The notes beneath the pieces are model-generated. The model did no database searches and had not been told where the DNA came from. It saw nothing but the letters and a program-made list of their open reading frames with translations. Below are positions 1,115 to 27,653 of a stretch of 64,000 nucleotides of DNA, piece after piece. The translations under genes were made by a program, and so were the position numbers. The stretch is taken from the NCBI GenBank assembly GCA_964645795.1, contig CAZYCL010000002.1, positions 16,352-80,351 of the forward strand. Reading direction: 5' to 3'. The stretch's first letter is position 1. Every line of letters starts with the position of its first letter. This DNA comes from an uncultured Planctomycetales bacterium (GTDB lineage Bacteria; Omnitrophota; Gorgyraeia; Gygaellales; Profunditerraquicolaceae).

Positions 1115-2803
1115 CTACTTCAAGAAAATATCTTTGGCTTCCAGTATGAGAGAAGACTCACCCTGCCAGGTGTCTAACCTCGGGGTATAGACCAGGTCAA
1201 ATTCCTCAGCCGCCTCCAAGCTTTCTTTCAAGGGCGCCATGCCGAAGCCGATCACCTGGTGCGTAAAATCCCCGTCAGTTACCCAGAATTTAAGGGTGTC
1301 CCGGCTTAGCTCCTGAATGCGGCTTTTTAGCTTCAAGCTGCGGCTTAAAAAAAGCGGCTCGGGGTTTCCGGCGCCGAAAGGCTCAAGCCGCTCCAGCTCT
1401 CCCACCAGCCTTTCGTTTATTTCACAAAAACCAAGCTGCGCGTCTATGTCGATGCTGGGCAGAAGGTCTTCGACAGTCAGCTCTTCGCGGGCAAAACGGT
1501 TGATGCTTTCGCGAAAATCTGCGATATTGTCGCGGGTGATCACCAGGCCCGCGGCGTGGCTATGCCCTCCGAAAGAATCAAGCAACCCCTGACACTCGGA
1601 CAGGGCGCGGAACAAATGAAAGTTCTTTATCGAGCGGCCCGAGCCCTTACAAAGCTCTTCGTTAAGGGAAATGACTATCGCCGGGCGGTAAAACCTGTCA
1701 GCCAGCTTCGAAGCCACAATACCCAGCACGCCGTGGTGCCAGTCTTCCTTGGCTATGACTATGACCTTATGCTCCTTGAAGTTCACTTCCCGGTTGATAA
1801 TATGCTCGGCCTCCTCCATAATCTTATTCTCGATCTTCTGACGCTGGCGGTTATGCAGCTCGACGATCCTGGCAAGCTCCGAGGCGTTATCGGCATTTTT
1901 GCTCATCAGCAGCTCGAATGACACCTCGGCCTGCCCCATGCGTCCGGCGGCGTTGATACGCGGGCCCAGGATAAAACTTACGCTGCTGGAGCCAAACTTC
2001 CTGTTCTTTATCCCGGCGCTCTCGATAAGCGCCTTAAGCCCGGGGCGGCTGGTGCGCGCAAGCCTCAACAGTCCTTCCTTGGCGATGATCCTGTTTTCAT
2101 CCACCAGCGGCACGACATCCGCGATGGTGCCCAAAGATACCAGGTCCAGCTCCTCCAACAACTCATCTGCGGCCAGGGCCTGACAGAACTTGTAAGCTAC
2201 CCCGACTCCCGCCAGCTCCTTAAAAGGATACGGGCAGCCGGCTATCTTGGGGTTGATTATCGCCGAAGCCTCGGGCAGCTCTGGCGTACGGGGCTGGTGA
2301 TGGTCGGTAACGATAACGCGCACGCCGCGAGAAACCAGTTCTCTTATCGGGCGATGATCGCTTATGCCGCAATCGGCGGTTATCAGGAGGCTGACGTGGC
2401 GGGATTGCGCCATCTCCAGGGCTTGCCTGCCAAGGCCGTAACCCTCTTTGATCCTGTTGGGAAGGGCGTGTATCGTCTGAATGCCCAAGCGCTGGAATGT
2501 CTCTTTAAGCAGCGCCAGGGAAGTTATCCCGTCGACATCGTAATCCCCGAAAAGCATGATCCCGGAGCCGCGGGAGGCCTCGCTCTTGACCAGCTCCACG
2601 GCCTTTTGCATATCGGAAAAGATGAACGGGTCGCGCAGGTCCCCGGTAGAGACGTTCAGGAACCTTTCTGCATCTTTTGTCGATCTTATGCCGCGATTGT
2701 AAAGGATGGCGCAGAGCGTTTTAGAGACGCCGAGGTTTTTTACGGCCTCGGCTTCAAAGATGGGGTCACGAAACGCTAAATTGAGGATTTTGTGAGTATG
2801 CAT
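1115..2803 (-). CDS. recJ: Single-stranded-DNA-specific exonuclease RecJ
   Basis: 562 aa with DHH-family motifs (LFGDYDVDGITS, VIVTDHHQP) and a DHHA1-type C-terminal region, giving the RecJ architecture. Confidence 0.9.
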   Translation of the reverse strand: MHTHKILNLAFRDPIFEAEAVKNLGVSKTLCAILYNRGIRSTKDAERFLNVSTGDLRDPFIFSDMQKAVELVKSEASRGSGIMLFGDYDVDGITSLALLKETFQRLGIQTIHALPNRIKEGYGLGRQALEMAQSRHVSLLITADCGISDHRPIRELVSRGVRVIVTDHHQPRTPELPEASAIINPKIAGCPYPFKELAGVGVAYKFCQALAADELLEELDLVSLGTIADVVPLVDENRIIAKEGLLRLARTSRPGLKALIESAGIKNRKFGSSSVSFILGPRINAAGRMGQAEVSFELLMSKNADNASELARIVELHNRQRQKIENKIMEEAEHIINREVNFKEHKVIVIAKEDWHHGVLGIVASKLADRFYRPAIVISLNEELCKGSGRSIKNFHLFRALSECQGLLDSFGGHSHAAGLVITRDNIADFRESINRFAREELTVEDLLPSIDIDAQLGFCEINERLVGELERLEPFGAGNPEPLFLSRSLKLKSRIQELSRDTLKFWVTDGDFTHQVIGFGMAPLKESLEAAEEFDLVYTPRLDTWQGESSLILEAKDIFLK

Positions 2804-2920
2804 GAGTTACGACTTATCCCTTACGCTTACCTGATTAAAAGATCGGGCAGGGGTAAGGGATGAATTCGGTCATAAGCTTACGTTCGCTCGCTGCGCTCAT
2901 TCCGTAAGCTTATACCTCAT

Positions 2921-4558
2921 TCACATTTTTTCGGGCTTAGAGACTCCCAAAAGGTCAAGGCCGGCGGCCAGGACCTGGCGCACGGCGTAAATGAGACAAA
3001 GGCGGGCGTTGCTAAGCTGCGCATCCTGCCCCAGGACGCGATGAAGGTCGTAAAACTTATGGAAAGCCTCAGCCAGCTCCTGCAGGTATACCGTAAGCAT
3101 ATACGGATCTAAGGTGCTAAGGCATATGTGAAGCGTGGAAGGAAAAGCCAGGGCCTTTCTCATCAGCGCTATCTCTTCGGCCTCATTCAAAACGGAAAGG
3201 TCCGCATTCTTATCCAGCCCCGAAGAGTTATTATTGAGTATGTTGGAGATCCTGGCGTGGGCGTATTGGACGTAAAATACGGGATTCTCGGCTGTCTGCT
3301 TCTTGGCGACCTCGAGGTCGAAATCGAGGTGGCTGGAGGTGCGCCGCATGACGAAGAAGAACCTGGCGGCGTCCTTGCCCACTTCGTCAAGCACTTCACG
3401 CAGGCTGATATACTGGCCTTTGCGCGTAGACATGTGCAGGATCTTGCCCGCCCTGTAAATGGTGGCCAGCTGCACGATAACTACCGAAAGCGCATCCGAG
3501 GGATGCTCGAAAGCCTGAACCGCCGCATTTATGCGGCTGATGTAGCCGTGGTGGTCAGGGCCCCAGAGGTTTATCAATCGCTGGAATCCGCGCTTGAACT
3601 TGTCCTGATGGTAGGCGATATCCGGGGCAAGATAAGTCAAGGCCCCGTCGCTCTTAACTACCACCCGGTCTTTGTCGTCGCCAAACTGCGTGGACTTGAA
3701 CCAAAGGGCGCCTTCCTTTTCATAAAGCAGGCCTCTTTTCTTCAGGTATTCGAAAGCCTCCTCGATCTTGCCGCTCCTGGCCAGCTCTTTCTGCGAATAC
3801 CAGCTGTCAAAGCGCACGCCGAAATCGCAAAGCTCCTTCTTTATCGTCTCCAGGATCCTTGCCGCGGCAAAATCACCCAAGTCCCGGCTCTGGATCTTAA
3901 GCCCGCTGGCCTGCCTGGCCAGATCGTAAATATAGTCGCCCTGATAAAAGTTCTCTGGAAAATCGTGCTTTTCGCCGGCCAGCTCTTTGGCGCGCAGCTC
4001 CACGGACGAACCGAGTATATTTATCTGGTTGCCCTCGTCGTTAAGATAATACTCCCGCTGCACGCGAAAACCCAGAAACTGCATTATGTTGGCCAGGCAA
4101 TCACCCACCGCGGCCTGCCGGGCATGGGCAACGGAAAGCGAACCGGTGGGATTGGCGCTGACGAACTCTATGAGCACCTGCCTGGAGTCGCCGGCGTCAT
4201 ATCTTAGGGCCTCTATGCCGGAGTGCAGAATCTCGGATATCCCGCGCAGGAAGTAACGTTTATCAAAATAAAAGTTTATAAAACCTGCGCCTTCCGCCCG
4301 TATCTGCGCGATGTAATCCTTGAGCTCTCCCTTGTTTAGATCTTGTGTTAACTTTTCGGCGATCTCGCGGGCCACTTCGATAGGCGGCTTTTTCAGGGGT
4401 TTGGCCAGCCGCATCGCCAGGTTAGTGGAAAGGTCCCCGAACCTGTTGTCGCAGACGGCATCAAGCAGGATCTGCGTACTGCCTGAAACCTCAAACCCGA
4501 GGTCCTGGACTGCGGTGTTTATCGCCCGGATAAGCGAATCCTGAATGTCTATTTTCAT
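2921..4558 (-). CDS. argS: Arginyl-tRNA synthetase
   Basis: Class I synthetase with the HIGH-type motif (VSANPTGSLSVAHARQAAVGD) and an ArgRS anticodon-binding C-terminus. The start is set at the internal MKIDIQ; the longest ORF extends to 4600. Confidence 0.9.
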   Translation of the reverse strand: MKIDIQDSLIRAINTAVQDLGFEVSGSTQILLDAVCDNRFGDLSTNLAMRLAKPLKKPPIEVAREIAEKLTQDLNKGELKDYIAQIRAEGAGFINFYFDKRYFLRGISEILHSGIEALRYDAGDSRQVLIEFVSANPTGSLSVAHARQAAVGDCLANIMQFLGFRVQREYYLNDEGNQINILGSSVELRAKELAGEKHDFPENFYQGDYIYDLARQASGLKIQSRDLGDFAAARILETIKKELCDFGVRFDSWYSQKELARSGKIEEAFEYLKKRGLLYEKEGALWFKSTQFGDDKDRVVVKSDGALTYLAPDIAYHQDKFKRGFQRLINLWGPDHHGYISRINAAVQAFEHPSDALSVVIVQLATIYRAGKILHMSTRKGQYISLREVLDEVGKDAARFFFVMRRTSSHLDFDLEVAKKQTAENPVFYVQYAHARISNILNNNSSGLDKNADLSVLNEAEEIALMRKALAFPSTLHICLSTLDPYMLTVYLQELAEAFHKFYDLHRVLGQDAQLSNARLCLIYAVRQVLAAGLDLLGVSKPEKM

Positions 4559-4610
4559 TTCTTTAAGGCGGAGTAACTTCCGAGGTAGGCAACAGAGCAA
4601 AAAATAGGGC

Positions 4611-4973
4611 CTATTTCAGGCTCCTGGGGATCCTGACCCTTTTGGCATCGCTCCACAAGCGCTCCAGGGCGTAAAAATCCCGGACAGGCTTGTGGAACAC
4701 GTGAACTACTACCGAAGAGAAATCCACGACGATCCATCCGGACTCGTCGTTGGCCGGGATACCCGAGAGCGGCCTGATCCCTTCTTTTTCCAGCTCATCC
4801 CTGATGCCGTGGGCAAAGGCATTGACCTGCCTCAAGGATGTGCCGCTGGCGATAACGAAATAATCGCAGAGGCTGGAAAGCCCGCTCAGATCCAGGACTA
4901 AGACGTTCTGCGCTTTCTTTGCCCTGGCTAAAAGCGCGATCCTTAAGGCTAGTTTTTTTGTGTCTGTCTTCAG
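4611..4973 (-). CDS. rsfS: Ribosomal silencing factor RsfS (Iojap family). The start codon is uncertain because no in-frame ATG, GTG or TTG lies upstream of the conserved region.
   Basis: The conserved RsfS core reads ...VLVLDLSGLSSLCDYFVIASGTSLRQVNAFAHGIRDELEKEG...WIVVDFSSVVVHVFHKPVRDFYALERLW. The frame is open from 5015 down to the TTG at 4835. The N-terminal homology needs a start near 4950-4975 (CTG or ATA). Confidence 0.7.
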   Translation of the reverse strand: MKTDTKKLALRIALLARAKKAQNVLVLDLSGLSSLCDYFVIASGTSLRQVNAFAHGIRDELEKEGIRPLSGIPANDESGWIVVDFSSVVVHVFHKPVRDFYALERLWSDAKRVRIPRSLK

Positions 4974-4995
4974 AGGTTCCTTCTTCTGGTTAGTC

Positions 4996-5145
4996 TCTAT
5001 TTTTTGCCCAGTATCTTATACATTCCGGTTCCGCAGCTGGGGCATTTTCCTTTTACCGCCGCGCGGCCGTTTTTCATCGTCACCTTCTGCTCGTCCTTCA
5101 TTTCTCTGCTAGCTTTGCACTTTACGCAATAACCTTTCTCACCCA
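4996..5145 (-). CDS. Small zinc-ribbon protein of about 49 aa (DUF5679-like), absent from the ORF track
   Basis: The ATG at 5143-5145 is preceded by AAAGGAGGAATCGA. The product is MGEKGYCVKCKASREMKDEQKVTMKNGRAAVKGKCPSCGTGMYKILGKK, with two CxxC pairs. Confidence 0.6.
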
Positions 5146-5179
5146 TTCGATTCCTCCTTTAGTAAGTCAACTAGTTAAA

Positions 5180-5207
5180 ATGATACCACAAAAAGAAAAA
5201 CAATCAA
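5180..5207 (-). promoter_or_regulatory. Possible extended -10 promoter (TTGATT-16-TGgTATCAT) for the small zinc-ribbon gene
   Basis: The reverse complement of 5180-5185 is TATCAT with TGg immediately upstream. The -35-like TTGATT is at 5202-5207 and overlaps the end of the upstream CDS. Confidence 0.25.
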
Positions 5208-6221
<1,014 letters not shown>

Positions 6222-22093: not shown

Positions 22094-22870
22094 CTATCTG
22101 GTCAAAAGCCTCTTCTGGACCTTCTCGATGAAGTTATCGATCGCCTTATTTTTGGGGTCAAGCAGGTGCGCATCGATAGCCTGACTTAAAGCCTTTACCT
22201 CTTCTCCTTTTTTGAAGCTTTCCTTTGCCATGGTAAAGAGGTCCCTGGACTGCTCATGCGTATCCTTTCGCAGCACCTCTTTCTTCTGCTCGACTTCGCG
22301 TATCAGCCCCAGGACCTGCCTTTCCTTGCTTTCTTCCGGGCTGACAGATGTAATCAACCCTATATCGACGCATCTGGCCCTGGCCTTCTCGGTCCAGGGG
22401 TCATTGGCTAAGCCAAGGTCGGCTCTTTTCTTCCAATAATATGCCGCCTTGTCCAGGTCGCGTTTAGTCTCGTAGAAAAGCGCAAGGTTTGAGTAGGCGC
22501 TTAGGAAATTCGGGTCCGTCTTTATCGACTGCAGATATGAGTTTTCCGCGCGCTCTAACTCTCCGTTAGCCTCATAGATGATACCCAGGTCATTATAAGC
22601 TATTGCGTAGGCCGGATCAAGCTCTACCGCTTTCTGATAATAGGCCAGGGCCTTGCGCAGATCTCCCAGATTCTGAACCTGGAGCCCCTGCTGCCGGTAA
22701 ATCCTGGCCTGCTCCTGCTGCATCGAAAGCTGCGGCTCGCTCCTGTCCGTTTTTGTGCCGCCGGCAACGGCCTCGGCAGAAAACAGAAAAAAGAAGATCA
22801 GCGGCGCATATCCGCAGGCAAATAATGAAGTTATAAATTTTGTTTTCTTGGGGAGGGGCGGAATGAACAT
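22094..22870 (-). CDS. TPR-repeat protein with an N-terminal signal or lipoprotein-like sequence
   Basis: Hydrophobic N-terminus with a Cys (LFACGY) followed by several 34-aa TPR units (AYYQKAVELDPAYAIAYNDLGIIY...). Confidence 0.7.
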   Translation of the reverse strand: MFIPPLPKKTKFITSLFACGYAPLIFFFLFSAEAVAGGTKTDRSEPQLSMQQEQARIYRQQGLQVQNLGDLRKALAYYQKAVELDPAYAIAYNDLGIIYEANGELERAENSYLQSIKTDPNFLSAYSNLALFYETKRDLDKAAYYWKKRADLGLANDPWTEKARARCVDIGLITSVSPEESKERQVLGLIREVEQKKEVLRKDTHEQSRDLFTMAKESFKKGEEVKALSQAIDAHLLDPKNKAIDNFIEKVQKRLLTR

Positions 22871-22933: not shown

Positions 22934-23848
22934 TTATCTGGCTTCAAGGCCTTGCACGCAATCTATGACTGAACCATCTTTCCTGAATCCGAGCCGGTAC
23001 GCTGCCACTTTTGAGGCGATTTGCGAACAAAGAACGACTTGCTTGGCCAGCCTTTCCCTGTCCCAGAAGGCCGCAAAGATATACGAAGAAAGCGTTCTGA
23101 AGGCGCAAGCCGCAGGAACTCCGGTGATCCTGTTTTTGCGGCAATGGTAAATGAAAAAGATCTTTTTAAGAAGGGCGCTGCCGGTTATGGATGCGGAGTA
23201 ATCGCTGAAGTTGCCGTGCCAGGGCGTGCCGTGCATAAGAAATCCGCCCTTGCCTGCGGTGATCAGCACGCGGTCGTCGTTAAAAACGCGGGCATTCGAA
23301 GACCTCCCCCATATACCGGCGATGGTAGATTTGCCTGCCCCGGAACGGCCGCAGAAGATCATGCCGCTGGCTTTCTTTTTGTCTATCCCGGCGCAGTGCA
23401 CGATCACTCCGCCCCTATCCGCATAATAACCGATGAGCATGATATGGATGCAATCGTAAATGAGGTCTTCGCACGACCAACCAAAGCGTTTTTTACCGCC
23501 GTCCATATAAACCGCGGCCTTCCTGTAATCCGGGGTTAAGACCATCACCTTCTTCCTGGCGGCAAGGCGCTGCCGGAAGATAAAATACCCGTCTTTTTTG
23601 AATGCCTGCCAAGCGGTCTTGTCCCTTAAAGGATGGATAGTGGTAAACACGGGTTTAGCGCCTTTAAGCAGGTCTGACGGCAGGTCGCTCTTGGGCATTA
23701 TCCGCATACTGCACTGCGAAGGCTGGCGCCCCCGGTAAATAAAGCGCGGGTACTTGAGGAAAGCCGGCGCATCTTTGATGTCGGAGCGGGCACGCTCGCT
23801 CTCCAGCCGCAACACAACATCCCCGATCTTAAGCCTTACTGTTTTCAC
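22934..23848 (-). CDS. HprK-fold P-loop kinase-like protein, last gene of the peptide-maturation operon
   Basis: P-loop GRSGAGKST preceded by GVIVHCAG and followed by NDDRVLI, matching the arrangement of the HPr kinase C-terminal domain. The start is set at a GTG that overlaps the upstream TGA as GTGA. An alternative ATG at 23944 would overlap rSAM-3 by 100 nt. Confidence 0.6.
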   Translation of the reverse strand: MKTVRLKIGDVVLRLESERARSDIKDAPAFLKYPRFIYRGRQPSQCSMRIMPKSDLPSDLLKGAKPVFTTIHPLRDKTAWQAFKKDGYFIFRQRLAARKKVMVLTPDYRKAAVYMDGGKKRFGWSCEDLIYDCIHIMLIGYYADRGGVIVHCAGIDKKKASGMIFCGRSGAGKSTIAGIWGRSSNARVFNDDRVLITAGKGGFLMHGTPWHGNFSDYSASITGSALLKKIFFIYHCRKNRITGVPAACAFRTLSSYIFAAFWDRERLAKQVVLCSQIASKVAAYRLGFRKDGSVIDCVQGLEAR

Positions 23849-24894
23849 GATGCCGTCCTTTGCGCGCAGGCCTGCGCCAGATCGCAATAATAGGCAACCG
23901 CTTTGTGCATATCGCCGCTCTCCAGAAGCGCCCTTCCCGGACAACGCCTGCAGCTATCCAGAAACTGGCAGGGCGCGCACGGTGAATCTTTTCTAAAATC
24001 CTGGCTGATAAGCCGGCTCAACGCCCTCATCCCTTTTTCAATCCCGTACCTGCCCAGATCGAAGCTGGGGGTTCTCACGGCAGTGCAGAGAAACATCCTG
24101 CCGCAGGGATCTACGCCAAAGCCGTCTCTTGCGGCATTGCACCTGAATAGCCTGCGGTTGCGGCCTTTGGGAGCTTGGTTTGCGCCCCTGCAAAACTCCG
24201 TATCCAGGCCCAATGAACCGTCCAAGCGGATTAAACTCGACGCATCCAGGCGGAGCGCGCAGACAGAGCTGTCGCGGTCAAGACGCGGCAAGATCAATGA
24301 CGATACCTGGTAGCCACAGCCGAGGCCGGCGGCAAAACTTTTGATCCGGTTCAACTCCTGATGGTTATCCTTTAACGCCATGCTTTTTATCTTAAAAGCG
24401 ATACCCGAAGCTTTAAGCATCCCGATCGAAGCCATGACCCTTTTGAGCACTCCCCGCCCGCCGGATATCCGGTCCAGCTTATGCGGATCAAGGCTGTTAA
24501 GCGTCAGCTCCACGCAAAAAGGCTTATGCATCTCTAAGACCCCGATCACCTCTTTATCGATAAGCATGCCGCTGGTGAATACCGTAATGATAAAACCCTT
24601 GCTGTGGGCATAAGCATAAATATCCGCAAAGTCGCTTCTGGCTAAAGGGTCTCCGCCGGTAAGGCCCAGCCAGAGTATGCCGTAATCATAAAGCTTATCC
24701 AGGACGGCGAACACCTTCTTTGTGGAAAGCTGGCGCCTTATAAATTGCCTGCGGTTGTAACAGTCGCTGTAACAATACCGGCAGTGCAGCGGGCAGGCAA
24801 AGGTCAGCTCAAACTGGCAGAGGGCCGGCCGCCCAAGCCTGCGGCTTGCCTTATGCGCCTGAAAGCTGAAATCTTTATACTCGAGATTGCGCAT
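23845..24894 (-). CDS. Radical SAM/SPASM-domain peptide-modifying enzyme, paralog 3
   Basis: CPLHCRYC (CxxxCxxC) near the N-terminus and a Cys-rich C-terminal SPASM region (CNAARDGFGVDPCGRMFLC...CAPCQFLDSCRRCPGRA). The start is set at the MRNLEYKDF Met, homologous to the starts of the two paralogs. Confidence 0.8.
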   Translation of the reverse strand: MRNLEYKDFSFQAHKASRRLGRPALCQFELTFACPLHCRYCYSDCYNRRQFIRRQLSTKKVFAVLDKLYDYGILWLGLTGGDPLARSDFADIYAYAHSKGFIITVFTSGMLIDKEVIGVLEMHKPFCVELTLNSLDPHKLDRISGGRGVLKRVMASIGMLKASGIAFKIKSMALKDNHQELNRIKSFAAGLGCGYQVSSLILPRLDRDSSVCALRLDASSLIRLDGSLGLDTEFCRGANQAPKGRNRRLFRCNAARDGFGVDPCGRMFLCTAVRTPSFDLGRYGIEKGMRALSRLISQDFRKDSPCAPCQFLDSCRRCPGRALLESGDMHKAVAYYCDLAQACAQRTAS

Positions 24895-25972
24895 CTTTCT
24901 TCTTGCGGACAAGGTCCCTGGTAAACTGCGCCTGCTTACGGTAATACGGGTCGCAGCTGAAAAAACTGCCGTCATTAAGGTAGGCCCTGGCCGGACACCA
25001 GCAGCAGTAATCGAATACATCGCAGCTCAAACACTCCCAATCAACAGGCGGTTTTATGCGGTCACAAGAAGCCTTGAGCTCCTGCCATCCGGCGGCAAGC
25101 CCTCCCCGCAGTATATCGTAGCCCGGATAATCTATCTGAGTACAAAAGTTCATCCTGCCGCAGGCATCCACGCTAAAATGCGATTGCGCCACGCCGCAGT
25201 TAAAGATGCTTTCTTTGAACCTGCGCCTTGACACAACCGGCCCGTTCTTTTTGCCTGTGCCCGGATTATTGAACATTTCCGGATAGCAGGCCCGGCGCAA
25301 TAAATAGCTCTCTTTGGGCGAAAGCATCCGGCGCATATGCGTCTTTGAACCGTCCAGGCGCGGCAAGAGCTCATTATCCAGGCGATAAATCACGCCGAGC
25401 TTGCGGGCAAAGGCGTTGACCTTGGGTATCTGGGATACATTATCCTGCATGCCGCAGGATTTTAGGGAAAAAGGCACCTTGTTCCTGCGCAATAATCTTA
25501 TGGCCCTGAAGACCTTTTCCGCCGAGCCCCTGACCCCGCTTATCGAATCAAATATTTTTTCATCCATCGCATGGACCGTTATGTCGACCTTATTCAAAGA
25601 TAACCTGCCCAGGGCCGCAGCCGTCTTTTCATCGATGAGCGAGGCATTGGTCAGGACGATCGTCTGCAAACCCAGCCTTTTGGAGTAATCGAGTATATCG
25701 AAGATATCTTTTCGTAAAAAAACCTCTCCCCCGGTAAATCCGACAAAGATGACCCCGATATCCCTCATCTGTTCCAATATAGAAAATACCTGCCGCCCGG
25801 AAAGCTCTTTGCCGGCCTTTAGAGACCTTCTTTCCGGAGGCAGGTAACAATGGAGGCATTGGAAGTTGCAGCGGTAGGTCAGCTCAAAGGCCGCCCTCAA
25901 CGGCAGCCTTTGCTCTAGCGAGACGCTCGATAGGCCCCTTACAAACTCCTTATAATCAAGCTCTTTTATCAT
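24875..25972 (-). CDS. Radical SAM/SPASM-domain peptide-modifying enzyme, paralog 2
   Basis: CNFQCLHC motif and SPASM cysteines (CGVAQSHFSVDACGRMNFC...CLSCDVFDYCCWCPARA). It overlaps paralog 3 by 20 nt. Confidence 0.8.
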   Translation of the reverse strand: MIKELDYKEFVRGLSSVSLEQRLPLRAAFELTYRCNFQCLHCYLPPERRSLKAGKELSGRQVFSILEQMRDIGVIFVGFTGGEVFLRKDIFDILDYSKRLGLQTIVLTNASLIDEKTAAALGRLSLNKVDITVHAMDEKIFDSISGVRGSAEKVFRAIRLLRRNKVPFSLKSCGMQDNVSQIPKVNAFARKLGVIYRLDNELLPRLDGSKTHMRRMLSPKESYLLRRACYPEMFNNPGTGKKNGPVVSRRRFKESIFNCGVAQSHFSVDACGRMNFCTQIDYPGYDILRGGLAAGWQELKASCDRIKPPVDWECLSCDVFDYCCWCPARAYLNDGSFFSCDPYYRKQAQFTRDLVRKKKDAQSRV

Positions 25973-27039
25973 TATCCTTTTAGGTCCAAACCCGAAAGCT
26001 GCCTCTTTCTGGCCTTAGCCAGGCGGCAGTAGTAGGGCACCGGCGCATGGTTATCTGCGGTCTCCAGATACGCGCGCTCAGGGCACCAACTGCAGTAAAC
26101 CCGCAGCCTGCAGCCTGAGCATTTTGACGCCTTGCGAAAAACCTCTTGGCTTAATCCTGCCAATTTTTTATAAAAAGCCCGCTTAAAGCCTGTCTTTAGC
26201 AGGCTTGATGAACGCTTGGAGCTTATATTGCAGAACTGCAGCCTGCCGTCGGGAGTCAGGAAGAACGAATACTGCCAGCTGTTGCAAAAGTACAGGAACC
26301 TGCCGGGCCTGGACCTTTTGCGTATCTGATGGCTGCTCTCGAGTAACTGCTTGCACATCTGGGCATCTTTTTCTTCTATAGAAATTATCTCTTTGGGCTC
26401 CAGCCTCCACAGGCAAGGCGTTTTATCTCGGTTAAGGCGCGGGAAAACAAATGCATCGAATTTGAACCTCCCCTTTCCCAAAAGCTTTTCGCTGAAAGCC
26501 TTAAGCCTGAGAACGTCATCTTTATTATGCTTTAGGCCGATGCATTTTACCACTGCGGGTATCCCTGCCTTTTTCAGGGCACCAAGCGCAGTCACGCTTT
26601 TATTAAACGAGCCACCAACCCCGGTAACCGATTCATGCGTTGCGGCGCTAGAACCGTAGAGGCTCACCTCTACCGCAAAAGGGGGATGCTGCCTGAAAAG
26701 ATCAAGGAGCTCATTGTTTATAAGCGTAGCATTGGTGAAGACCGTGACCAGAAAGCCTTTCTTTAAGGCGTACCTGTAGATGGCCGGGAAATCTTTATGT
26801 AAAAGCGGCTCTCCTCCGCTAAAGGTTAGCCACAGGCAGCCTCCGGACCTTATATCATCGAGGATCTTTTTCCATCGGCCAAACCCCAGCTCCCTCAAAG
26901 ATACCAGCGGCTTACCATGGTCACAGGTAAAACAATGCACGCATTTAAGGTTGCAGCGGTAGGTAAGGTTAAGGGTGGCTTCCAACGCTCCTTTATTCTG
27001 GCAAGCGCAGGCAAACTGGCGGTAGGCTAACTCCTGCAT
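25972..27039 (-). CDS. Radical SAM/SPASM-domain peptide-modifying enzyme, paralog 1
   Basis: CNLKCVHC motif and SPASM cysteines (CNSWQYSFFLTPDGRLQFC...CSGCRLRVYCSWCPERA). Its stop overlaps the paralog-2 start as TAATG. Confidence 0.8.
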   Translation of the reverse strand: MQELAYRQFACACQNKGALEATLNLTYRCNLKCVHCFTCDHGKPLVSLRELGFGRWKKILDDIRSGGCLWLTFSGGEPLLHKDFPAIYRYALKKGFLVTVFTNATLINNELLDLFRQHPPFAVEVSLYGSSAATHESVTGVGGSFNKSVTALGALKKAGIPAVVKCIGLKHNKDDVLRLKAFSEKLLGKGRFKFDAFVFPRLNRDKTPCLWRLEPKEIISIEEKDAQMCKQLLESSHQIRKRSRPGRFLYFCNSWQYSFFLTPDGRLQFCNISSKRSSSLLKTGFKRAFYKKLAGLSQEVFRKASKCSGCRLRVYCSWCPERAYLETADNHAPVPYYCRLAKARKRQLSGLDLKG

Positions 27040-27049
27040 AGGAAAGGTA

Positions 27050-27331
27050 TTAAACCAACGCTTTTATGTCTTTGAGGTCTTTAAGGAAAGGTGTCAGGGA
27101 CGCATCCAGTGTTTCCGGCCCCACCGCGTACTCTCTGAGGATTATCCTTTTTATCGAAAAAATATCCTTTTTCCCGTCGAACAGGCTCCAGATGCGGGCG
27201 CCGACGGCATCGAGGGTGTATATACAGTCTGCGTCTTTTGAGCTCTTATAAAGCGGGACCAGGATCGTTTCCTGTCCGAAAACGCGGGTAACGACCTCCG
27301 GGTTTTTCTTATATATATAGGAGTCTTTCAT
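27050..27331 (-). CDS. PqqD-family peptide chaperone (stand-alone RRE domain)
   Basis: 93 aa with the typical PqqD pattern (...ETILVPL...YTLDAVGARIWSLFDGKKDIFSIKRIILREY...LDASLTPFLKDLKDIKAL). Confidence 0.7.
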   Translation of the reverse strand: MKDSYIYKKNPEVVTRVFGQETILVPLYKSSKDADCIYTLDAVGARIWSLFDGKKDIFSIKRIILREYAVGPETLDASLTPFLKDLKDIKALV

Positions 27332-27361
27332 TAGGCGGGTACTTGCGTCCGGCTCCGTTCT

Positions 27362-27583
27362 TTAGGTGTTTACCGCGCTTATCGAGCCGCCGGTACCGCA
27401 ATTGTTGATCCAGCACATCGAACCGACAGGATTATTGAATACCGACTTGGTACCGACCGAACAACAGGCCAGGACCGCCTGCTCGGGATTAAGCCTGATC
27501 CTGGTGATCTCTGGATTGCGCCAGGCTTTTTTGGCTGGGGACTTCTGCCTTGCGCTTCGATGACCGCTCTTGCTGGTCGGCAT
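27362..27583 (-). CDS. Candidate RiPP precursor peptide of 73 aa, with a basic PqqA-like leader and a Cys/Gly/Ser-rich C-terminal core
   Basis: The ATG is preceded by AAAGGA-N8. The leader segment KKAWRNPEITRIRLNPEQAV resembles the PqqA recognition motif W-x-x-P-x-h-x-x-h-R-L-x-x-E. The core is CCSVGTKSVFNNPVGSMCWINNCGTGGSISAVNT. The gene lies 30 nt upstream of the PqqD gene. Confidence 0.5.
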   Translation of the reverse strand: MPTSKSGHRSARQKSPAKKAWRNPEITRIRLNPEQAVLACCSVGTKSVFNNPVGSMCWINNCGTGGSISAVNT

Positions 27584-27624
27584 AGATGATCCTTTGTAAT
27601 AAGGCTGGATGCTTACCTAGTTAT

Positions 27625-27653
27625 ATTTTAATGTATGGCCAAATAAAGGTCAA
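27625..27653 (-). promoter_or_regulatory. Near-consensus sigma70 promoter (TTGACC-17-TAAAAT) driving the precursor/PqqD/rSAM/kinase operon
   Basis: The reverse complement of 27648-27653 is TTGACC and that of 27625-27630 is TAAAAT, with an exact 17-nt spacer. The precursor ATG is about 40 nt downstream. Confidence 0.45.

Follow-up and report, generated by a model that had tools for sequence, protein, structure and literature searches.

We describe a six-gene operon in a 64,000-nucleotide stretch of contig CAZYCL010000002.1 (assembly GCA_964645795.1), which we refer to as the window, and we are moderately confident that it is a genuine accessory operon of Candidatus Omnitrophota for making a peptide that is produced on the ribosome and modified after translation (a RiPP). 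In the scheme that we propose, a short precursor would be bound by a stand-alone PqqD-family protein, modified by three radical S-adenosylmethionine (rSAM) enzymes of the SPASM type and phosphorylated at its last residue by a kinase-like protein of the HprK fold. An earlier note, written from the sequence alone, had already read these genes as RiPP maturation, and we agree with it: a conserved leader and a variable core are encoded beside the enzymes, together with a PqqD-type RiPP recognition element (RRE) and rSAM enzymes with CX3CX2C motifs.

What links the precursor to the kinase is the last residue of the peptide. Among the unique precursors of the kinase-anchored loci, 75 of 79 end in Ser (65) or Thr (10), compared with about 15% for open reading frames (ORFs) of the same DNA. 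The other four are cut short, at 29-43 aa. These truncated ORFs (2615-2731 in L010, 2576-2692 and 1057-1146 in L012, and 8920-9051 in L007) have an intact leader, a short core and a non-Ser/Thr end, and they are probably decayed paralogues. The best 120 database matches to the family all end in Ser (119) or Thr (1), but this set is not fully independent because the search profile includes the terminal column. ORFs found with a DNA pattern for the leader only, whose retrieval does not depend on the C-terminus, end in Ser or Thr in 21 of 21 cases. This terminal residue and the Cys are the sole constants across cores that are otherwise hypervariable, and the window precursor, which ends in Thr73, fits the rule.

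HPr-kinase homologues are known to phosphorylate the C-terminal Ser of lasso-peptide precursors with little regard for the remaining sequence (PMC8498205), and for pseudomycoidin the nucleotidyltransferase PsmN then adds hexoses to the C-terminal phosphate (PMC8498205; PMC9266682). The near-invariant C-terminal Ser/Thr, the conserved catalytic residues of the kinase and this lasso-peptide precedent together lead us to propose phosphorylation of Thr73 as the best-supported role of the window kinase.

The operon and its six genes

The six genes lie co-directionally on the minus strand at 22934-27583 and form a compact operon behind a promoter-like site. We set the gene starts from the DNA and from gene calls on identical public contigs. 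All six ORFs are where the earlier note had placed them, and its description of every junction as overlapping or at most 30 nt also held up, with measured spacings of +30, +10, -1, -20 and -4 nt from precursor to kinase. The promoter-like site, TTGACC-17-TAAAAT, is sigma-70-like with 10/12 matches (27625-27653, minus strand), and a promoter function for it is putative. The earlier note had called it the promoter; the site was found, but it is not significant on its own, since there are 7 sites of this type in 6.1 kb compared with 4.2 +/- 1.6 expected. What gives it weight is its position inside the 77-nt gap 3' of the acsB stop, and that the orthologous locus L085 keeps the TTGACC -35 box, with an A/T-rich -10, at this position. 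We looked for an attenuator or terminator hairpin 3' of the precursor gene and found none (RNA fold z-score -0.38).

The precursor gene (27362-27583, minus strand) encodes 73 aa and has AAAGGA 7 nt 5' of its ATG. Its leader, residues 1-38 (MPTSKSGHRSARQKSPAKKAWRNPEITRIRLNPEQAVL; 27470-27583), carries the motif KKAW..P.ITRIRLNPEQAVL, which is conserved in related ORFs; in about 100 related loci it stands before a core that varies and is rich in Cys. In our leader alignment (A2), P24 is invariant and L31, P33, A36, V37 and L38 are conserved at 90% or more, and we place the predicted boundary between leader and core directly after AVL. The core, residues 39-73 (ACCSVGTKSVFNNPVGSMCWINNCGTGGSISAVNT; 27362-27469 with the stop codon), contains four Cys, one Trp and one Lys, as the earlier note had counted. 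It fits a pattern that we call ACC-type, A-C-C-x3-6-[KR]-x5-12-C-x3-6-C-x6-11-[S/T], which is common to L085 and 16 metagenome loci.

The precursor of L085 (MSSKKGSGVSLSSKQRQKKAWHDPVVTRVKLNPEQAVLACCHPSYKTYIGGGSMCQSGCTYNSISASNT) is identical to that of the window at 34/69 residues, 14 of them with different, synonymous codons; within the leader segment, 18/24 residues are identical and 8 of these involve synonymous changes. A jackhmmer search seeded with the window peptide on the small ORFs of the kinase-anchored loci found 85 homologous ORFs, so the 73-aa ORF is conserved beside orthologous clusters, a point on which the earlier note had staked its reading. A profile of 44 precursor ORFs matches at least 4508 database proteins, all of them 'hypothetical' and without a Pfam domain. 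The precursor falls into no family of the Pfam and NCBIfam models, and two family precursors match the StsA sactipeptide model weakly (E=0.0014), which is marginal. On all public contigs that we compared (the window, L001, L002, L004 and L085) the precursor gene is uncalled although the neighboring genes are called, and a collection of 15 billion proteins does not contain the exact window peptide. We believe that precursors of this family are probably under-annotated in general. On one 5.6-kb contig, L105 (also L104), two ACC-type precursor genes at 669-1097 stand away from any maturase genes. Their neighbors encode a membrane protein and, at 2486-3274, a secreted protein rich in Cys. It may be that precursors can be encoded apart from the enzymes, or else the gene order differs on this contig.

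The second gene (27050-27331, minus strand) encodes a 93-aa stand-alone protein that scores 40.7 bits with PqqD PF05402 (gathering score 23.4, E=3e-10), which bears out the earlier PqqD call. We presume that it is the leader-binding RRE. Its orthologues in related loci are 43-54% identical to it.

Three rSAM genes follow on the same strand: rSAM1 (25972-27039, 355 aa, PF04055 E=5e-20), rSAM2 (24875-25972, 365 aa, E=1.6e-20) and rSAM3 (23845-24894, 349 aa, E=9e-18). The gene callers start rSAM3 at MRNLEYKDF, and the longer ORF up to 25020 is an upstream extension of it. All three have a CX3CX2C motif, with a Cys triad that does not vary among orthologues, and seven Cys near the C-terminus that are kept over about 19 orthologues each; in rSAM1 these are C29/C33/C36 and the C-terminal Cys 252, 270, 307, 310, 316, 319 and 338. 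The earlier note had called all three rSAM/SPASM enzymes. The motif, PF04055 and the seven Cys agree with this, but the SPASM models agree only in part, as rSAM3 alone passes TIGR04085 (31.0 bits with a cut-off of 27, compared with 23.6 for rSAM1 and 20.9 for rSAM2) and the Pfam SPASM model matches none of them.

The nearest named families of the three enzymes are diverse (AhbD, NirJ2, PqqE, MftC, ScmE/F, GeoRSP, StsB and AlbA) and all are far below cut-off. The best NCBIfam matches, to AhbD, NirJ2, PqqE and MftC, reach 80-96 bits where the cut-offs are 265-650, so by score these are not cofactor-biosynthesis enzymes, an outcome that the earlier note had considered. Their nearest solved homologues by sequence are SkfB (E=3.6e-14) and CteB (5wgg). 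The rSAM motif begins at residue 29-35 and none of the three has an N-terminal RRE of its own, so one PqqD protein must serve all of them. They form three stable orthogroups over about 20 Omnitrophota and Elusimicrobia loci. In a neighbor-joining tree rSAM2 and rSAM3 each form a monophyletic group, and the single rSAM of a simpler cassette described below has rSAM1 as its nearest group. Orthologues of rSAM2 are 33-51% identical and are in all Omnitrophota-type loci. We also noticed a Cys just upstream of a GGE/GGD motif in 84-89% of rSAM2 and rSAM3 orthologues and also in rSAM1 (C68); in the window it is replaced by V74 in rSAM2 and G77 in rSAM3, and L085 has Thr in rSAM2 and Cys in rSAM3.

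The last gene (22934-23848, minus strand) encodes a 304-aa P-loop kinase-like protein of the ScmC family with an HprK/PEPCK fold, and its GTG start overlaps the rSAM3 stop as GTGA. Precomputed annotation assigns the window protein (P0001) and most of its homologues to Pfam ScmC (PF27840). The HPr-kinase-like P-loop GRSGAGKST on which the earlier note had based its call is present (G167-T175, 23324-23350, minus strand). The call of an HprK fold holds: there is structural similarity to the HPr kinase/phosphorylase-PEPCK fold, and the Walker A and DD catalytic motif are retained. H151, G167-x-S-G-A-G-K-S-T175, D191-D192-R193 and P209-W210-x-G212 are invariant or nearly so, which we take to be the H..G...G.SG.GKS...DD arrangement of the HprK/P active site. 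A PDB profile search returned mostly generic ABC P-loop matches plus HprK at E=7.6e-4, and a PDB sequence search with the C-terminal half of the kinase gave no matches.

Membership in a named HprK-like family is a different matter. The kinase scores 27.7 bits with NCBIfam ScmC (TIGR04249, cut-off 125) and 28.4 with HprK-related kinase B (TIGR04355, cut-off 200), and it has no match to HprK-related kinase A (TIGR04352). The earlier note had mentioned that kinases A and B neighbor PqqD and rSAM genes; this was a good lead, but the window kinase belongs to neither. None of the 37 homologues that we scored (27 + 10) reaches the curated HprK-like cut-offs, and the whole kinase family therefore lies outside the curated HprK-like families. 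Relatives are present in about 450 of 185,579 species genomes, and the kinase matches 2567 representatives of 50%-identity clusters at E<=1e-30. One locus from Desulfobacca (L053) has two different HprK-like genes (1026-1817 and 4585-5490), with HprK-related kinase A as the nearest family of one and kinase B as that of the second, as well as two PqqD genes and two precursors.

Related clusters and known systems

We mapped the window proteins onto 80 loci with tblastn and blastp. PqqD, rSAM, precursor and kinase occur together in about 80 loci from many phyla, and the loci found only with the leader DNA pattern carry the kinase wherever their flanks allow it to be seen (L095, L096, L097, L100, L101, L107 and L108). 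There are two architectures.

The simple cassette has a near-fixed order of PqqD, one rSAM/SPASM enzyme, precursor and kinase, and is hosted by Acidobacteriota, Chloroflexota, Desulfobacterota, Nitrospirota and others. An S24-like peptidase usually comes directly after it (41/60 loci), and in some cases this peptidase is a fusion with a PF14907 nucleotidyltransferase or with a GNAT. Its precursors follow the pattern ..KKPY.KPE...V.LRPEEAVLG.CK....GP....C.....C...GS.

The three-rSAM type occurs in about 21 loci of Omnitrophota and a few Elusimicrobia. Gene order is variable and there are one to four precursor paralogues with hypervariable cores. An ABC exporter is adjacent in 14/21 loci, and a B12-rSAM, PF14907 or an S24 peptidase is present in some. 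Genes for PF14907 nucleotidyltransferases are in 11/21 loci of this type and in 17/60 other loci. The fullest clusters contain PF14907, ABC, PqqD, rSAM1, S24, rSAM2, rSAM3, B12-rSAM, kinase, precursor and precursor. With a DNA pattern encoding NPEQAVLACC we found 16 further metagenome loci whose cores follow the window pattern. In the 64-kb window there is no homologue of the S24 peptidase, the ABC exporter, PF14907 or the B12-rSAM; as S24, ABC and PF14907 are all missing from it, the window operon is a pared-down member of the ACC-type branch.

A UPF0489 (arginase-like, PF12640) and TPR protein is encoded beside many three-rSAM clusters (L096, L099, L101, L103, L106-L108, L005, L006, L010, L013, L018, L020 and L023). 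Cores beside this gene are richer in Arg (8.3% compared with 4.7%, Mann-Whitney p=0.0017, with samples that are not independent), and the window and L085 have cores without Arg and no UPF0489 gene. The protein might be a peptide arginase or a deiminase-type tailoring enzyme.

The nearest catalogued relatives of the window operon are the SynChlorMet cassette and Pfam ScmC. SynChlorMet (ScmC, the PqqD-like ScmD, and the rSAM/SPASM enzymes ScmE and ScmF) has the same kinds of parts, but the window proteins score 27.7 with a cut-off of 125 for ScmC, 20.8 with 100 for ScmD (TIGR04248), 76.2 with 400 for ScmE and 68.0 with 400 for ScmF. The window also has three rSAMs where SynChlorMet has two, and the SynChlorMet cassette is itself only a computational definition. 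The earlier note could not place the layout in any characterised RiPP class. It does fall outside both SynChlorMet and the lasso system, but it is widespread, with about 450 species genomes that carry it and thousands of proteins from metagenomes, and has been catalogued computationally. The architecture is therefore already known, yet the family is unstudied: in the literature outside subscription journals we found no paper on SynChlorMet or ScmC, on HprK with PqqD and radical SAM, or on a kinase in sacti- or ranthipeptide (rSAM-RiPP) clusters.

In its kinase logic the operon resembles the lasso systems with PadeK, ThcK and PsmK. As in the window, these kinases are HprK-like and belong to a RiPP cluster with a PqqD-type RRE, and their precursors share little except the C-terminal Ser; the window family likewise ends in Ser or Thr, with Thr in the window itself. 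The PF14907 genes of related rSAM loci parallel the pairing of lasso kinase and PsmN, with the caveat that PsmN is not confirmed as a PF14907 protein. For the window PqqD, NCBIfam gives as its best match the lasso PqqD chaperone from Bacillus, which is weak (24 bits with a cut-off of 80). Neither the operon nor its conserved neighbors include a lasso cyclase (Asn-synthetase-like) or a B2 protease, and here it is rSAM/SPASM enzymes that would modify the core. The window operon would work like the lasso C-terminal Ser kinase system without being a member of it, and the two are likened by description and not by kinase sequence.

Maturases of sacti- and ranthipeptides (SkfB, CteB, AlbA and PapB) are also rSAM/SPASM enzymes that act on Cys-containing cores after leader recognition. 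Their RRE is an N-terminal fusion to one enzyme, however, whereas the window has a separate PqqD and three paralogues, and unlike them it has a kinase and an invariant C-terminal Ser/Thr. The systems for pyrroloquinoline quinone (PQQ; PqqD/PqqE), mycofactocin (MftB/MftC) and GeoRSP share with the window a discrete PqqD-family chaperone, rSAM/SPASM enzymes and a compact operon without an exporter. The window scores far below their equivalog cut-offs (96.5 with 381 for PqqE TIGR02109, 85.1 with 265 for MftC TIGR03962 and 83 with 400 for GeoRSP), and its family differs from these systems in having hypervariable cores in an accessory cassette.

Proposed maturation and its alternatives

The gene content, folds, motifs, conservation, synteny and C-terminal rule given above are observations, and every chemical step of the proposed scheme is our inference. 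From what is known of its family, the stand-alone PqqD protein would bind the precursor leader at about residues 18-38 (KKAWRNPEITRIRLNPEQAVL) and present the 35-residue core to the three rSAM/SPASM enzymes. Each of these may then use a 5'-deoxyadenosyl radical to make one modification of the core. With four Cys conserved in ACC-type cores, our default guess is Cys-to-carbon thioethers on these Cys. The kinase would phosphorylate the C-terminal Thr73, as the lasso HPr-kinase homologues do on Ser. Leader removal and export are encoded neither in the operon nor elsewhere in the 64-kb window. Relatives have an adjacent S24-like peptidase and ABC exporter.

Several points weigh against this scheme. 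For every named HprK-like family the kinase falls far short of the curated cut-off, and Pfam SPASM (PF13186) does not match the rSAMs even when their C-terminal domains are isolated. The number of Cys does not scale with the number of rSAMs, at 3 for the cassette with one rSAM and 3-5 for the type with three, so at least two of the three rSAMs may do chemistry other than thioether formation. The C-terminal Ser/Thr could serve some other enzyme, for example an rSAM that acts on the C-terminus as MftC does, or it could serve recognition by a peptidase or exporter. Finally, the 64 kb around the window operon contain neither a peptidase nor an exporter nor a nucleotidyltransferase for it.

There are also other ways to read the P-loop protein. 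It may not be a peptide kinase at all but an ATP-dependent scaffold or chaperone, a phosphorylase or phosphatase, or an activator of the C-terminal carboxylate or backbone, for instance for cyclisation. We consider this improbable, although it is the alternative that we take most seriously: the residues that mark HprK/P catalysis (Walker A lysine, DD(R) motif and upstream His) are invariant, and the co-occurrence with PF14907 mirrors the kinase and nucleotidyltransferase pair of pseudomycoidin. A kinase could instead act in dehydration, phosphorylating internal Ser/Thr so that elimination gives dehydroalanine or dehydrobutyrine and Cys attack gives lanthionine-type rings, with the rSAMs left to do other modifications. 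The earlier note had suggested this; kinase-driven dehydration is established for class III/IV lanthipeptides, and the core is rich in Ser/Thr and Cys. We think it unlikely nevertheless, as the operon and its conserved neighbors contain no lyase or cyclase domain, the C-terminal residue is the only Ser/Thr position conserved over the hypervariable cores, and the established HprK-like RiPP kinases target a C-terminal Ser.

Other readings concern the product. The operon could make an intracellular redox cofactor of the PQQ or mycofactocin type and not a secreted peptide, possibly serving the adjacent Wood-Ljungdahl genes. It lies directly downstream of acsB, has a stand-alone PqqD with rSAM/SPASM enzymes whose best NCBIfam matches include PqqE and MftC, and lacks an exporter or peptidase in the operon or window. 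However, the scores are 4- to 5-fold below the PqqE and MftC cut-offs, the cassette is missing from three relatives that share the acsB-TPR-polA backbone, and hypervariable cores, multiple precursor paralogues and ABC exporters in 14/21 loci are the signature of a secreted peptide, so we give this little chance, slightly less than dehydration. It could also be argued that the genes are unrelated neighbors or the 73-aa ORF is chance, and that the substrate of the rSAMs is not a peptide but, for example, heme or another cofactor: gene callers miss the ORF, its exact sequence is absent from 15 billion proteins, and AhbD and NirJ are among the top hidden Markov model matches. The ORF is conserved with synonymous changes, its leader motif recurs beside the same enzyme set in about 100 loci, and those model scores are far below cut-off. 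We regard this last reading as effectively refuted already and hardly credible.

We hold to the scheme of PqqD, rSAMs and kinase, and part of what supports it is new. This holds for the precursor family and the motif of its leader, for the Ser/Thr that almost always ends these peptides and ties them to the kinase, for the branch of three rSAM orthogroups in Omnitrophota, and for the accessory nature of the cassette. More tentatively, and with rather less confidence than we have in the operon itself, the clusters may be a distinct RiPP class with a wide distribution among uncultivated phyla (Omnitrophota, Elusimicrobiota, Acidobacteriota, Chloroflexota, Desulfobacterota and Nitrospirota). Its Omnitrophota branch would pair one PqqD with three non-redundant rSAM/SPASM enzymes, each making a different modification on one 4-Cys core. 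If the phosphorylation that we propose holds, C-terminal phosphorylation, so far known only as a tailoring of lasso peptides, would be a portable module that also serves radical-SAM peptides, and it would define a family of thousands of unannotated precursors. It would also give a rule for finding missed precursor genes, namely a leader with ...L.PE(E/Q)AVL..C... and a C-terminal Ser/Thr. The Omnitrophota branch would then be a compact and tractable test case (4.7 kb, with a single precursor, a chaperone, three rSAMs and a kinase), which could show how several rSAMs share one RRE and divide the labor on one core, and its product would be a first defined natural product from a phylum without cultured producers.

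Genomic setting of the cassette

The Rho protein of the window is 91-97% identical to Rho from many metagenome-assembled genomes of Candidatus Omnitrophota. The closest relative for which we have DNA is L085, from a Logan assembly, with acsB 79%, polA 66% and glgA 69% identical to the window. Its gene order is the same: acsB, the uncalled precursor, PqqD, three rSAMs, the ScmC-like kinase, TPR, polA, glgA and coaE. The cassette proteins are 45-54% identical between the two and so far more diverged than these flanking genes.

Three more distant relatives (L109-L111, with acsB 64-71% and polA 57-60% identical) all lack the cassette (3/3); in them the TPR gene with a promoter before it comes about 50 nt after acsB, and then polA, glgA, coaE and rho. 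Because these syntenic relatives keep acsB-TPR-polA without it, the cassette is accessory: its six genes form an insert of 4.7 kb, with acsB on one side and a TPR gene of the backbone on the other. The earlier note had described the operon as wedged between polA and acsB, which is right on the acsB side, but the TPR gene (22094-22870) separates the kinase from polA. We searched the flanks for direct or inverted repeats marking a mobile insertion and found none, the only repeats being due to rSAM paralogy.

We had suspected that the TPR gene was part of the system, since it is 3' of the kinase in both the window and L085 and weakly resembles the UPF0489 and TPR gene near related clusters. We ruled this out, since the three cassette-free relatives keep it in place between acsB and polA, which makes it part of the backbone. 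Its protein begins with a signal-peptide-like segment (KKTKFITSLFACGYAPLIFFFLFSAEAVA followed by GG), and the gene has its own promoter, TTGACG-16-TATAAT, at 22911-22884.

An Rfam scan of the 64-kb window gave no matches to tRNA, rRNA or any other Rfam family. Nearly all real-looking long ORFs of the window (1-64000) are on the minus strand, where they make up about 55 consecutive genes, and the plus-strand ORFs of at least 150 aa all overlap longer minus-strand ORFs.

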